Shown one piece after another: positions 521 through 4,369 of a stretch of 4,369 nucleotides of DNA. The notes beneath the pieces were generated by a model that was given only the letters and a program-made list of their open reading frames with translations, ran no database searches and was not told the DNA's origin. The position numbers were made by a program, and so were the translations under genes. The DNA is from a virus. Lineage: Duplodnaviria; Heunggongvirae; Uroviricota; Caudoviricetes. The stretch lies in the IMG/VR virus record IMGVR_UViG_3300007747_000098. The stretch is one strand, 5' to 3'. Position 1 is the stretch's first letter; each line of letters begins with the position of its first letter.

Positions 521-862
521 TTATAAATCAGCCTGTTTAATAAAACTCTGTCCACGCAGCAGACGATCAACCGTGCGAAGCGCTTCGTATAATGTGAAAT
601 CCTGCCCGAACTGATTGTCGCCGCTGCTCAGAGCAAAAATGCGGTTTCCGGTAAACGGATTGCGCGGGCATTTGTGGACCACGATTCCAGCTTTCTCAAT
701 CAGCCAGGCATGCTCGCCGATTTGTTTTACTGGGTAGCCATCCGGCGTTGCGTGTGTATCACTCAGGCTGTAGCGGATGTTGCTGCGTGATGCACTGGTA
801 GCAAAACGGTTAGCGTGGCGTTCTGCACCATTGCGAAAGCGTGAATTACGTTGCTGTTTCAT
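521..862 (-). CDS. Hypothetical protein, 113 aa, with arginine-rich basic N-terminus
   Basis: Track ORF; ATG at 862..860 with a weak SD. First 30 residues (MKQQRNSRFRNGAERHANRFATSASRSNIRYS) are strongly basic. First gene of an apparent three-gene coupled operon on the minus strand. Function unknown. Confidence 0.5.
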   Translation of the reverse strand: MKQQRNSRFRNGAERHANRFATSASRSNIRYSLSDTHATPDGYPVKQIGEHAWLIEKAGIVVHKCPRNPFTGNRIFALSSGDNQFGQDFTLYEALRTVDRLLRGQSFIKQADL

Positions 863-883
863 GTTAAAGACTCTGTACAGATT

Positions 884-934
884 TAATTATTCCGGCATAG
901 AGGCCGAACTCAAAATATTTGCGATTAAATCGCA
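884..934 (-). promoter_or_regulatory. Predicted sigma70-like promoter plus upstream 15-bp perfect palindrome for the 862..1 operon
   Basis: On the minus strand: -35 TTGAGT (plus 913..908), 16-nt spacer, -10 AATAAT (plus 891..886), about 25 nt upstream of the ATG at 862. Perfect palindrome TGCGATTAAATCGCA at 920-934 sits 6 nt upstream of the -35 (centre near -50). Called by eye only. Confidence 0.3.
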
Positions 935-1114
935 TCGCATTGTTTTCACGTTTTGCGGACTGCTGGTTCATTTTCGTTTGCCTCCGCACATGAGAATTGC
1001 GCCGCTTAAGAGGTAACCGAAGTTAATTGATAGTATTACAATTAACATAAGGTCCAATTTGTCCATGCCACACATAATTACCCTCATTGCAGTAGTTGTG
1101 GGTTGTCAGGTTTC

Positions 1115-1321
1115 TCACCCGATAAACCAGATAACAAACGCTATCAACATCGCCCCAATAGCTGCCGGGAAAAGTCCTTTGGTATAAGCGGCGATATATT
1201 CAATGCTGAGTTCAATAAAGCGTTCTTTATGTCCCGTTAACTTGCGAAACAAATAGATCTCTATTACGCCTATCTCAATAAAAACAAGGGTCAGAATGGC
1301 GCTGATGATATGGCTGGTCAT
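1115..1321 (-). CDS. Small hydrophobic protein, 68 aa, likely two transmembrane segments
   Basis: Track ORF; ATG at 1321 is 6 nt after the cox-like TAG stop (1328-1330), suggesting translational coupling in the early operon. Two hydrophobic stretches (IISAILTLVFIEIGVIEIYLF and LFPAAIGAMLIAFVIWFIG) flank a charged loop (RKLTGHKERFIE). Confidence 0.45.
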   Translation of the reverse strand: MTSHIISAILTLVFIEIGVIEIYLFRKLTGHKERFIELSIEYIAAYTKGLFPAAIGAMLIAFVIWFIG

Positions 1322-1327
1322 TTATGA

Positions 1328-1615
1328 CTAAAGTCCCAGCCACAACAACCATGCGTCGCGGCGTTCTTTCGGTTGCTCAAAAAACGCTTTGCGCATGCCT
1401 TCGTTAAATGCTGGCAGATATACCCAGTTTTCTGATGCACGCGTCTTTACTGAACCTGGTTTCACAAAGTCAATTGTTGGTAGCTTTGCTGCGTCAATCA
1501 TGGTTCTGACTGTGGATTCCTTGCGGCCGATCATCTTGGCGAATAGTTGATATGGCACCGCTTCAAGTGGATATGGTGCTACCTGAATGAACCCCCCAAG
1601 CTCTGATTCGCTCAT
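1328..1615 (-). CDS. cox: Cox-like excisionase / early-operon regulator (P2 Cox family), 95 aa
   Basis: Track ORF; ATG at 1615 with AGGGAG SD 9 nt upstream. It is divergent from the repressor, about 90 aa, and contains motifs I recall from P2 Cox (PYQ-FAK-IG, TVR-MID-KLP, WVYLPA, WL-WLGL). Similarity is from memory, not a search. Confidence 0.75.
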   Translation of the reverse strand: MSESELGGFIQVAPYPLEAVPYQLFAKMIGRKESTVRTMIDAAKLPTIDFVKPGSVKTRASENWVYLPAFNEGMRKAFFEQPKERRDAWLLWLGL

Positions 1616-1728
1616 TGTGGTAATCTCCCTAATTCGTTCGAATGGCTCAAAATGGCTTATATCGGCTTATTTGAGTGTTTTTATATTTGTGCCCGATGTG
1701 GCATGTTGTGATGGAGGATATGCCCGAT
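1616..1728. promoter_or_regulatory. Divergent cox/C intergenic region (candidate lysogeny switch) with phased direct repeats
   Basis: 113 bp between the divergent cox and C starts. Three 7-bp repeats at exact 10-bp phasing (TGGCTCA 1643-1649, TGGCTTA 1653-1659, CGGCTTA 1663-1669). Two copies of a 15-mer with inverted outer arms (TGCCCGATGTGGCAT 1690-1704 and TGCCCGATATGGCAT 1721-1735), 31 bp apart; the second overlaps the C start codon. Confidence 0.5.
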
Positions 1729-2049
1729 ATGGCATCTTTGTCAAGCATGGGTGAAAAATTTCGCCTGATTCGTGAAGCAGAAGGTATGACCCGCCAGGAG
1801 TTTGCGGATTGTGTTGGGCTGCCTTATGGGACGGTAACTAACTATGAGGTGAGGGGGAAGCAAGTAACAGAGGGTGCCTTACTTAAGGTTACGAAACACC
1901 CTAAATTTAAGAAGTATGCTTATTGGTTATCAACAGATGAAACGATGCCGGAGGTCGGGCAAATTTCTCCGGCTCTCTCTCTTGATGGTTCCTGCAATTC
2001 GGAGGGAGATCGCGTTTCAACCGAAACAATCCAAAAATTATCCCGCTGA
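1729..2049 (+). CDS. C: P2 C-type immunity repressor (HTH), about 106 aa
   Basis: Track ORF 1675..2049 starts at a GTG. I prefer the ATG at 1729 (MASLSSMGEKF...) because GGAGGA at 1713-1718 sits 10 nt upstream and the length then matches a ~100-aa C repressor. HTH segment MTRQEFADCVGLPYGTVTNYE; C-terminal GQISPALS resembles P2 C as I recall it. It lies directly upstream of and co-oriented with int. Confidence 0.75.
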   Translation: MASLSSMGEKFRLIREAEGMTRQEFADCVGLPYGTVTNYEVRGKQVTEGALLKVTKHPKFKKYAYWLSTDETMPEVGQISPALSLDGSCNSEGDRVSTETIQKLSR

Positions 2050-2145: not shown

Positions 2146-3150
2146 ATGTCGATTAAGAAGCTCGAAGATGGTCGTTATTTGCTGGACATCAGGCCGAACG
2201 GACGCAAGGGAAAGCGCGTGCGTAAGGTATTTGACAAAAAATCGGTAGCGGTGGCCACTGAACGCTACATCATGGCGAACGCTGAAAAGCGGGAATATAT
2301 ACAGGGCTACCGTGATCGTCGAACGCTAAATGATTTGCTTGAGTTGTGGTGGATGTATCACGGCCAGCACAGGCGTAAGGCGGAAGAAGACCGAAAACAA
2401 CTGCGCAACATAATCAATGAGCTTGGCGCTGATATGCAGGCTGTGGCTCTTGATAAGCTGAAAATTATCGCGTGGCGTTCTCAAAAGATAGCTGATGGAT
2501 TGAAACCGTCATCTGCTAACAGGTACATGAATCGGTTATCCGGAATGTTTACCGTGCTGAAAAAAATAGGTCTTTGGGATGCAGAACATCCAGTAAGGGG
2601 AATTTCTATTCTTTATGTATCTCCACGAGAAATGGCGTTCCTGTCACAGAAGGAAGTGGCGCTATTGCTCGATACACTGGAGGGCGACTACTGGCGTGTT
2701 GCGCTTTTGTGTTTAAGCACAGGGGCGCGCTGGAGTGAAGCTTGTAAGCTTCGTGGTGAACAGATAGTTCATAACCGTGTAACGTTTCTTGAAACCAAAA
2801 ATGGCCGGAAGAGAACAGTGCCAATTTCGCAGGCAGTTTGTGAGGCGATCAAAACCAGAGAAACAGGCGGCTTGTTTGAGGTGAAGTACCGGGAATTCTG
2901 CCTGGCGCTGAAAAGAGTTAAGCCCGATTTACCAAAAGGCCAGGCTGCACATGTGCTGCGGCATACGTTCGCCAGCCATTTTGTGATGAACGGAGGAAAC
3001 ATTATTGCGCTTCAGAAGATTCTTGGTCACGCAACCATTCAGCAAACAATGGCATATGCGCATTTTGCACCGGATTACCTGCAGGATGCGGTGGCCCTTA
3101 ATCCGCTGAAAGGTGGCGTAAGTGTCCACGCAGTGTCCACGGGGGATTAA
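2146..3150 (+). CDS. int: Tyrosine recombinase / phage integrase, P2 Int-like, 334 aa
   Basis: Track ORF 2131..3150 starts at TTG. ATG at 2146 (MSIKKLEDGRYLLDIRPNGRKGKR...) has GGAGGG 7 nt upstream and matches the P2 Int N-terminus as I recall it (MAIKKLDDGRYEVDIRP). Tyrosine recombinase catalytic signatures are visible: LSTGARWSEA (Arg), HVLRHTFASH (His-x-x-Arg), ILGHATIQQTMAYAHF (Tyr region). Confidence 0.9.
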   Translation: MSIKKLEDGRYLLDIRPNGRKGKRVRKVFDKKSVAVATERYIMANAEKREYIQGYRDRRTLNDLLELWWMYHGQHRRKAEEDRKQLRNIINELGADMQAVALDKLKIIAWRSQKIADGLKPSSANRYMNRLSGMFTVLKKIGLWDAEHPVRGISILYVSPREMAFLSQKEVALLLDTLEGDYWRVALLCLSTGARWSEACKLRGEQIVHNRVTFLETKNGRKRTVPISQAVCEAIKTRETGGLFEVKYREFCLALKRVKPDLPKGQAAHVLRHTFASHFVMNGGNIIALQKILGHATIQQTMAYAHFAPDYLQDAVALNPLKGGVSVHAVSTGD

Positions 3151-3308
3151 TTTTATATAGCCTGAAACGGCTTAAAGGGCGATACTGAATAACAATTTTT
3201 CAGTATTGCCCGTCTAAATGGTTATGTTGTTATCTGTATGATTATTAATGTTTTTTCAGATTAAACAGCAGTTTGCAAATGGGCGTTTGTTGATAAAGGA
3301 GACTTAGA
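3151..3308. other. Candidate prophage attachment-site / phage-host junction region (attL or attR)
   Basis: AT-rich non-coding stretch between the int stop and the host pdxB RBS. Contains an 8-bp inverted repeat with 9-bp spacer (ATACTGAA 3182-3189 / TTCAGTAT 3199-3206), TTTTTCAG repeats and a small dyad AGCC-N6-GGCT (3159-3172). The core cannot be placed without the other prophage end or an empty site. Confidence 0.4.
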
Positions 3309-4369
3309 TTGTCAGAGACTGAAAAAGGGTTAAAAATCCTTGTTGATGAAAATATGCCTTATGCCCGCGACTTATTTAGCCGTTTGGGTGAGGTGACCGC
3401 GGTTCCCGGGCGTCCAATTCCTGTCGCTCAACTGGCAGACGCGGATGCGCTTATGGTGCGTTCGGTCACGAAAGTGAATGAATCTTTGCTGGCAGGAAAA
3501 CCCATTAAATTTGNNNNNNNNNNNNNNNNNNNNNNNNNNNNNNNNNNNNNNNNNNNNNNNNNNNNCAGACGCGGATGCGCTGATGGTGCGTTCGGTCACG
3601 AAAGTGAATGAATCTTTGCTGGCAGGAAAACCCATTAAATTTGTTGGCACTGCCACTGCGGGGACCGACCATGTCGATGAAGCATGGTTGAAGCAGGCGG
3701 GAATTGGTTTTTCCGCTGCACCTGGCTGTAATGCGATTGCGGTGGTGGAATATGTTTTCTCCTCACTACTGATGCTTGCCGAACGCGATGGATTTTCACT
3801 GCACGACCGTACGGTGGGGATCGTGGGCGTTGGTAACGTTGGACGTCGATTGCAGGCGCGACTGGAAGCGTTAGGGATTAAAACATTGCTTTGCGATCCG
3901 CCTCGCGCTGACCGTGGGGATGAGGGTGATTTCCGCTCGCTGGATGAATTAGTTCAGCATGCGGATATTCTGACTTTCCATACGCCACTCTTCAAAGATG
4001 GGCCGTACAAAACGCTGCATCTGGCGGATGAAAAACTGATCCGTAGCCTGAAGCCGGGAGCGATTCTGATTAACGCCTGCCGTGGCGCAGTCGTCGATAA
4101 TACTGCGTTGCTGACCTGCCTGAATGAAGGCCAGAAGTTAAGCGTAGTGCTGGATGTCTGGGAAGGCGAACCGGAACTTAACGTGGAGTTGCTGACAAAA
4201 GTGGATATCGGCACGCCGCATATCGCAGGTTATACCCTGGAAGGTAAAGCACGCGGTACTACGCAAGTGTTTGAAGCCTATAGCAAGTTTATTGGGCATG
4301 AACAGCACGTTGCGCTGGATACATTACTGCCCGCGCCAGAGTTTGGTCGCATTACGCTGCATGGCCCGC
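3309..4369 (+). CDS. pdxB: Erythronate-4-phosphate dehydrogenase PdxB, 3'-partial; reading frame interrupted in this assembly by an N-gap and duplication at 3514-3643
   Basis: Translation before the gap ([62 protein letters not shown]) and after it in frame +1 (…[23 protein letters not shown]…[12 protein letters not shown]…ITLHGP, open to the window end) matches E. coli PdxB as I recall it. Deleting the 130 extra bases restores one continuous frame. Start is either TTG 3309 (AAGGAG SD 3296-3301) or ATG 3354; see findings. Confidence 0.9.
3436..3513 (+). repeat. 78-bp direct duplication of pdxB coding sequence, copy 1 (left gap flank)
   Basis: Copy 1 at 3436-3513 and copy 2 at 3566-3643 are identical over 78 bp except one base (T at 3452 vs G at 3582; CTT vs CTG, both Leu). 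Confidence 0.9.
3514..3565. other. Run of 52 N (scaffold or assembly gap)
   Basis: Literal n characters in the sequence. Together with the 78-bp duplication this adds 130 bases (130 mod 3 = 1), which shifts pdxB from frame 0 to frame 1. Confidence 0.95.
3566..3643 (+). repeat. 78-bp direct duplication of pdxB coding sequence, copy 2 (right gap flank)
   Basis: See copy 1. Consistent with two contig ends that overlap by 78 bp being joined with an N spacer instead of merged. Confidence 0.9.

Follow-up and report, generated by a model that had tools for sequence, protein, structure and literature searches.

Two repeat families in the cox-C spacer of a Xuanwuvirus prophage as candidate C and Cox binding sites of a P2-type lysis/lysogeny switch

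Which proteins read the short repeats that lie between the divergent genes cox and C of a P2-type prophage, and what would their binding control? The question is raised by a stretch of 4,369 nucleotides (IMG/VR record IMGVR_UViG_3300007747_000098, Caudoviricetes; the whole stretch is called the window here), which is the int-C-cox end of a Xuanwuvirus prophage (P88/P884B11-like, P2 family) adjoining the Escherichia coli gene pdxB. Positions 1300-2160 are 99.7% identical to Xuanwuvirus P884B11 (Peduoviridae), and of 5426 complete E. coli genomes 296 (about 5%) carry prophages of this type, chromosomal in every case. The repeats studied are found within the 113-bp spacer between the two genes (1616-1728), a pair of 15-mers on the side of C and a run of phased 7-mers on the side of cox. 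It is judged likely here, by comparison with related switches, that they are the C and Cox binding sites of a bistable P2-type lysis/lysogeny switch with face-to-face promoters and two separate sets of operators.

The two genes are readily assigned. The product of cox (1328-1615, minus strand, 95 amino acids), the first gene of the early (lytic) operon, matches Pfam Phage_Cox PF10743 (E=1.3e-22; 79.9 bits, cut-off 27.5) and the structure of P2 Cox (4LHF, E=3.5e-26), and is labeled in RefSeq as a Cox family DNA-binding protein. C (1729-2049, plus strand) encodes a small P2-family repressor of 106 amino acids with a single helix-turn-helix (HTH) domain, which matches the P2 C structures 2XCJ/2L49 over residues 6-88 (E=4.4e-16); its HTH_3 match falls under the Pfam cut-off. 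Its start codon, ATG 1729-1731, was chosen by PGAP and follows the Shine-Dalgarno sequence GGAGGA (1713-1718, plus strand, read from the sequence); the same start behind GGAG, at the same distance, is kept in heteroimmune relatives. The gene int follows C. These structural and Pfam matches bear out the P2-type cox/C switch that had been proposed in a sequence-only reading of the window.

The repeat next to C is the 15-mer TGCCCGATRTGGCAT, present at 1690-1704 (TGCCCGATGTGGCAT) and 1721-1735 (TGCCCGATATGGCAT). The copies are identical at 14 of 15 positions and stand 31 bp apart from start to start (about three helical turns), the second overlapping the C start codon, as had been described beforehand; a repeat finder extends the pair to 16 identical positions of 18. 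No other match occurs in the window even when 3 mismatches are allowed, and the 37.1-kb reference phage genome contains no further exact copy; its two additional 3-mismatch matches are at chance level, and a search of the same genome for distal operators, such as those of 186 CI, found none. The repeat next to cox consists of three TGGCTYA-like 7-mers at 1643-1649 (TGGCTCA), 1653-1659 (TGGCTTA) and 1663-1669 (CGGCTTA), in exact 10-bp phasing as the sequence-only reading had noted. They are written here as on the plus strand and read on the cox strand (minus) as TTTGAGCCA (1651 to 1643), TATAAGCCA and AATAAGCCG, that is, WWTRAGCCR; they were singled out by their phasing and conservation and are termed candidate cox-boxes 1 to 3. 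A fourth position at 1673-1679 (minus strand), recognized by comparison, is degenerate in the window (GAGTGTT) and reads TGGCTAT in the type B and C relatives introduced below.

Could both families be chance similarities in an AT-rich spacer? Short repeats are common, and the number of TGGCTYA-like 7-mers in the window is close to expectation (24 matches, 22.7 expected). What chance does not account for is the arrangement. Within the 107 bp around the C start the 15-mers form the best direct-repeat pair and beat all of 300 dinucleotide shuffles (p<=0.003), and the chain of three boxes at 10 bp is found a single time in the 37.1-kb phage genome and in 0 of 100 shuffled genomes. For the latter count the pattern had been derived from the very site it describes; a test that presupposes no pattern finds 16/20 positions identical at lag 10 (p<=0.003). 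The comparison of loci points the same way. Loci were collected by similarity to Cox (55 viral and 72 genomic, plus further phage and E. coli records), and a usable divergent cox/C switch was present in 121 of all loci. An exact 14-mer of the repeat occurs twice in every locus carrying the immunity version of the window (type A) and in none of 115 other loci, while in other immunity types both positions change together. A chance origin of the repeats is thus effectively refuted, and the two families that had been reported at these positions exceed what chance would produce. Across 14 type-A haplotypes, 14 positions vary within 1616-1744, none of them among the 30 operator positions, and variable sites directly abut the 15-mers at 1689, 1705 and 1719/1720 (p ~0.02, a rough estimate from counts of variable sites).

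The distance between the copies varies slightly. In the type-A variants L040 and L043 (IMG/VR) it is 32 bp instead of 31, owing to a 1-nt insertion at about 1705, which suggests that the spacing is tolerant; such tolerance was shown by experiment for WPhi (PMC1904263).

What the 15-mers would control is indicated by a promoter. A sigma-70-like scan of 1500-1850 returned a single promoter-like match, TTGACA-18-TATCCT on the minus strand (10/12), facing leftward to cox. It is the predicted early promoter, Pe, with its -35 hexamer TTGACA at 1739-1744, inside C codons 4-6, and its -10 hexamer TATCCT at 1715-1720 (both minus strand, from the consensus scan); the TTGACA is present in most relatives. 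The two 15-mers flank this -10. The copy at 1721-1735 (candidate C operator half-site O1) takes up the -35/-10 spacer, and that at 1690-1704, candidate half-site O2, lies 11-25 nt downstream of the -10 (both identified by repeat search and conservation, with no strand assigned). The same scan applied to P2 and WPhi finds their Pe alone, with the published half-sites likewise placed. In P2 and WPhi the half-sites are known from experiment (PMC1904263, PMC1904268); they bracket the Pe -10 in these two phages, and those of P2 Hy dis bracket the -35, with center-to-center distances of 22, 34 and 26 bp, respectively, or about two to three helical turns. As a positive control, an unsupervised search for direct repeats recovered exactly the published half-sites of P2 (ATCTAAAC twice, 22 bp) and WPhi (GTCACCAATA twice, 34 bp), and the search yields a significant repeat pair in 15 of 25 non-redundant C clusters, mostly 30-34 bp apart.

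Which protein would bind these sites can be approached through natural exchanges between relatives. In Shae_phiSM (type B), Cox is 97% identical to that of the window and the box segment (1616-1672) 91%, as against 48% for C and 47% for the operator segment (1673-1738); in Chuche (type C) the corresponding values are 98%, 93%, 42% and 42%. In both phages the two 15-mer positions are occupied by another pair of repeats, TATYACATGTAAC/GATCACATATGATC and TTTCTCAAYTTAGAAA/TTTCTCATATGAGAAA, respectively. The phage ev239 is the converse, with Cox at 38%, the box segment at 38%, C at 75% and the operator segment at 52%: its repeats are related to those of the window and its 10-bp boxes are different. 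The operator sequence hence co-varies with C, and the boxes travel with cox independently of C.

These exchanges bear directly on the proposal of the sequence-only reading that the 15-mers serve C autoregulation or allow Cox to repress the C promoter. That the 15-mers are targets of Cox, or of C and Cox jointly, has some appeal, given that the second copy covers the C start and both lie downstream of any plausible C promoter, where a bound protein could block C, and that P2 Cox at high concentration spreads toward Pe (PMC3936717). It is nonetheless very improbable. Phages with 97-98% identical Cox carry wholly different repeats at both positions, exchanged together with C, which contradicts a Cox action at these sites; moreover, Cox of the P2 family acts at short boxes spaced by one helical turn, which the 15-mers do not resemble, and the family-wide 10-bp periodicity described below belongs to the cox-proximal half of the spacer. 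As judged from sequence, the 15-mers are not a Cox target. Because they flank the Pe -10 and co-vary with C while Cox remains 97-98% identical, they are best read as the primary C operator on Pe, and it is very likely that C shuts off Pe through them. C may in addition regulate itself through the 15-mers, a secondary action of the kind documented for P2 (PMC3448106).

An unusual form of C was met during this survey. In the type-C relatives L006, L042, L044, L045 and L046 the repressor open reading frame (ORF) is about 195 amino acids long and holds two C-family domains in frame (in L006 at ~804-1451, minus strand), an N-terminal type-C domain followed by a nearly complete C domain of the type A found in the window. 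It is also present in E. coli genomes (H83-H89): an identical ORF is intact in 7 complete genomes and absent from 50,697 phage records. No type-A operator was found at the fused-C loci. The fused protein could be a dual-specificity (double-immunity) repressor or a scar of recombination.

How a C dimer might contact the 15-mers is suggested by their internal symmetry. Each one carries TGCC and GGCA arms (TGCC-N6-GGCA) 10 bp, or one helical turn, apart, and the complementarity of the arms amounts to 5/7 to 7/10 pairs. The inverted ATGCC/GGCAT-like arms noticed in the earlier reading are present, then, though their symmetry is marginal when the window is considered by itself (p 0.07-0.10). Across 16 operator types the signal is clear, with Fisher p=4e-8 for the O2 sites, 7 of 16 individually below 0.05, and perfect palindromes of 16-22 bp in several types. 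The half-sites of P2 have no such symmetry (p=0.43 and 0.14) and are described as non-palindromic; in the crystal structure of P2 C, the orientation of the dimer suits binding to two successive major grooves (PMC2995052). One symmetric C dimer per repeat is plausible in the window. It may further be proposed, as a tentative generalization that falls a little short of an even chance, that the direct-repeat half-sites of the P2 family are tandem dyad-symmetric operators that receive one C dimer each, with the P2 8-mers as a degenerate exception.

The same arms admit a reading at the RNA level, by which they would form hairpins (GUGCC/AUGCC-N6-GGCAU) acting on C translation or transcript stability, the DNA repeats being a by-product. 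Each 15-mer folds as a hairpin with a 5-bp stem (-5.3 to -5.9 kcal/mol, z ~-2), and the downstream one includes the C start codon. Hairpins of such strength are weak, however, and over their full length the leaders show no unusual degree of structure (z=-1.2 and -1.6). Nor do hairpins account for the need for a second copy at a constant distance of about three turns, for the position of the pair on either side of a -10 of the other strand, or for the presence of the proven operators of P2 and WPhi in the same places. An RNA role could coexist with operator function; as the explanation of the repeats it is highly doubtful, and the assignment of the 15-mers to C as its operator is preferred.

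The boxes on the side of cox are the second element of the proposed switch. In the window, as in P2, 26 nt separate the cox ATG from the beginning of the run, and in P2 this stretch is, by our reading, the footprinted cox-box region (PMC3936717). The 10-bp periodicity is general: when lags of 5-16 were tested on 47 non-redundant cox-proximal regions, self-similarity was highest at lag 10 in 33.7 of them, and the mean maximum identity is 12.1/20 at lag 10 versus ~8 at every other lag. Types A, B and C, with their common Cox, all keep the boxes. Within type A the sole polymorphic base of the block is the off-consensus C1663 (C/A), whereas 1676-1678, in the fourth position, are polymorphic.

The boxes probably overlie a weak C promoter, Pc. 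In P2 we infer from the sequence and the published primer-extension figures (PMC1904263) that the Pc -10 (TATAAT) lies inside the second box, and positional homology suggests TATATC at 1658-1663 (plus strand) as a weak candidate -10 in the window, with TATATT at 1682-1687 (plus strand) as an alternative. The latter hexamer shows a peculiarity of this prophage: position 1685 is A in the window and G in the 13 other type-A haplotypes (TATATT versus TATGTT), which gives a better -10-like hexamer on the plus strand just upstream of O2 and could raise transcription in the direction of C.

The possibility that the TGGCTYA repeats are not Cox sites, being instead Pc or UP elements, sites of host factors, secondary C sites or a neutral tandem remnant, has to be weighed against these data. 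It draws on the lack of enrichment of the 7-mer, the presence of three copies, a partial match to the P2 consensus and a single perfect box in the att arm (see below), and a -10 of Pc inside the block may account for part of its conservation. Yet the periodicity, at the same distance from the cox ATG, recurs throughout the switches compared, including the footprinted boxes of P2, and the single variable base of the type-A block falls at an off-consensus position. The block is conserved at 91-93% where Cox is conserved and at 38% where Cox is at 38%, independently of C, and the loci L053 and L057, which share Cox and differ in C, both retain AATTGC-type boxes. The alternative is therefore regarded as unlikely, and the earlier suggestion that the phased repeats are Cox sites gains from both the P2-like offset and the co-variation with cox. 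We take the TGGCTYA repeats to be most probably Cox boxes over Pc.

A sequence of events can be modeled on the biology of P2 and WPhi, with the layout observed here in its support. In the lysogen, C made from Pc would occupy O1 and O2 and block Pe, probably as two cooperating symmetric dimers, one per 15-mer, set 31 bp apart on the same face of the DNA. RNA polymerase would be excluded from Pe, and cox and the lytic operon would be kept off, which would amount to immunity. By analogy with P2, Pc would be freed from convergent interference once Pe is repressed, and C at high levels may also dampen its own transcription, O1 being situated downstream of Pc and across the C start. When Cox accumulates, it would oligomerize along one face of the DNA over Pc (whose -10 is probably TATATC, 1658-1663) and block this promoter, so that C and int would be turned off and lytic growth would follow. 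The binding itself, its stoichiometry, the transcription starts and the regulatory outcome belong to this model, and the sequences of the repeats, their geometry, statistics, conservation and co-variation with the cognate gene to the observations.

Cox should also bind the att arm for excision, and this region supplies a further comparison. The integrase gene int (2146-3150, plus strand; Pfam Int_N and Phage_integrase) contains at its 3' end two P2-type Int arm-type sites (3122-3140, minus strand, from the sequence; GTGTCCAC twice, 11 bp apart), for which the consensus is tgTGGaCa (PMC3448106), and the same arrangement is found in P2. The int-proximal att arm has one perfect site of the cox-box kind, TTTAAGCCG (3168-3176, minus strand, a match to WWTRAGCCR), accompanied by a partial inverted partner, ATATAGCCT, at 3155-3163 (7/9 match). 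One perfect match in the arm compares with ~0.03 expected by chance, a weak, single-site signal, and the whole genome has nine perfect matches versus 5.5 expected; the two best box matches of P2 are also in the int-proximal arm. The conservation of the att arm is uninformative, because the arms of Shae_phiSM and Chuche are nearly identical to that of the window.

Several points weigh against the proposed switch and are set out together. For Cox, excision should involve binding to the att arm, where one perfect box is seen. The spacer has three clear boxes with a degenerate fourth position in this type, and P2 Cox targets consist of at least six boxes with at least 70 nt protected (PMC3936717). 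By hand alignment, boxes TATAAGCCA, TTTGAGCCA and AATAAGCCG match 6/8, 6/8 and 4/8 of the specified positions of the P2 consensus TTAAA(G/C)NC(A/C) (PMC3936717), which leaves the AG-C core alone in common; the partial match indicates a different Cox specificity, as with WPhi Cox (PMC5009727). As to the promoters, Pe is a consensus match alone, its -10 (TATCCT) being poor and its spacer 18 nt long, and Pc was placed by homology alone, the consensus scan finding none in the window. A consensus Pc is absent from the same scan in P2 and WPhi too, and the Pc of these two phages is known experimentally to be weak. The dyad symmetry of the 15-mers, already marginal, is not significant in a region-wide palindrome scan of the window (p=0.62). 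The type-A haplotypes and many of the surveyed loci are related by descent, so that the conservation p-values are rough. Finally, the literature searched yielded no binding, footprint, reporter or transcript data for this phage group. Confidence is lower for the boxes than for the C operator because there are three boxes alone, Pc is placed by inference and the att arm has one perfect box.

How does this locus compare with switches already characterized? It is closest in plan to those of WPhi and P2. Like WPhi, it has two direct repeats about three turns apart that flank the Pe -10, with O1 in the -35/-10 spacer and O2 downstream, and a small (~100 amino acids) P2-family C as the first gene of a convergent lysogenic operon (PMC1904263, PMC1904268). 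The WPhi repeat GTCACCAATA is unrelated in sequence, with a unit of 10 bp and a spacing of 34 bp versus 15 and 31 bp in the window; its C is 41% identical to that of the window, and its O1 lies 22 nt upstream of the C start, whereas that of the window overlaps it. The -35 TTGACA of the WPhi Pe is just upstream of the C start, while in P2 it overlaps the 5' end of C, as in the window. WPhi Cox recognizes a 12-nt direct repeat (PMC5009727), and the boxes of the window are phased at 10 bp. With P2 the window shares the gene order, the face-to-face Pe and Pc, the half-sites flanking the Pe -10 and cox-boxes in 10-bp phase that begin 26 nt from the cox ATG, have the orientation of the cox strand and cover the probable Pc -10 (PMC3936717). 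It differs in that the P2 half-sites ATCTAAAC measure 8 bp and lie two turns apart, against 15 bp, three turns and TGCC/GGCA arms; in that the P2 boxes read TTAAAGNCA and number six or more, against WWTRAGCCR and three clear ones; and in identities of 34% for C and ~50% for Cox. P2 Hy dis, compared by its published spacing alone, also differs, with a unit of 8 bp at 26 bp (PMC1904268).

More distant systems are informative in other respects. In phage 186, the pR-pL sites of Apl, which is both recombination directionality factor and lytic repressor, are direct repeats one turn apart between convergent promoters (PMC7498355), as the boxes are here; its CI is a two-domain protein of 196 amino acids that binds inverted repeats and acts with CII, unlike the single-domain, 106-amino acid C of the window (PMC1904263). 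A cII-like ORF was sought between cox and the downstream genes and none was found; with C small and single-domain and no cII, a switch of the 186 CI/Apl/CII type is excluded. The restriction-modification controller C.Esp1396I, a structural relative of P2 C, binds tandem dyad-symmetric sites as two cooperating dimers (PMC2995052), with 15 bp from center to center versus 31 bp in the window, and its resemblance to the present case concerns the mode of binding alone, which is the one proposed for the 15-mers.

Of the immunity classes I-X (Karlsson et al. 2006), the comparison made here covers class IX, represented by PhiECO5 of strain UTI89, a related phage type. Identity with this phage (PMC3448106) is rejected, its C being 43% identical, its Cox different and its integration at serS-dmsA. 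The class IX switch of UTI89 PhiECO5 (L064, 1940-1995) contains a strong palindrome, TCTTCACC-ATGT-GGTGAAGA, with a degenerate second copy 32 bp away over the C start, and its Cox ORF is unusually long (522 nt).

The surroundings of the switch offer some further observations. On the 3' side of cox, the minus strand encodes a hydrophobic 68-amino acid ORF with no family match (1115-1321) and a DUF4761 protein (521-862); in P2, by contrast, cox is followed by orf78/B. At the other end of the window, the phage attP matches the prophage-host junction up to 3354, inside the 5' end of pdxB. In the lysogen pdxB is annotated from TTG at 3309, and its upstream region and first codons are phage-derived; since the match to attP reaches 3354, the gene starting at this TTG has a phage-derived 5' end. 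A run of 52 N at 3514-3565 inside pdxB is flanked by a duplicated stretch of ~77 nt (3437-3513 and 3566-3643) of the same pdxB sequence, which looks like an artefact of assembly or scaffolding and not biology.

Does the locus then represent something new? The literature searched yielded no study of this switch, and the P88 paper contains nothing on it. With an operator unlike those of P2 and WPhi and a C that is 34-41% identical to theirs, a distinct immunity type, as had been suggested from the repeats, is a fair reading; most likely the locus is a switch of a familiar type with a new immunity specificity and not a new kind of system. A concrete operator (TGCCCGATRTGGCAT twice, 31 bp apart) and candidate Cox boxes can in this way be assigned to a P2-like prophage type carried by about one complete E. 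coli genome in twenty. This type would exist in at least three heteroimmune versions that combine one Cox and one block of boxes with different C/operator modules. Versions A, B and C form a natural swap series in which the evolution of immunity specificity, and the way in which a symmetric C dimer reads its site, may be followed. If the tandem-dyad view of the half-sites is true, it resolves the puzzle posed by the P2 C structure, that of a symmetric dimer reading asymmetric DNA. For the biology of the group, the operator sequence would predict which lysogens exclude which Xuanwuvirus phages.

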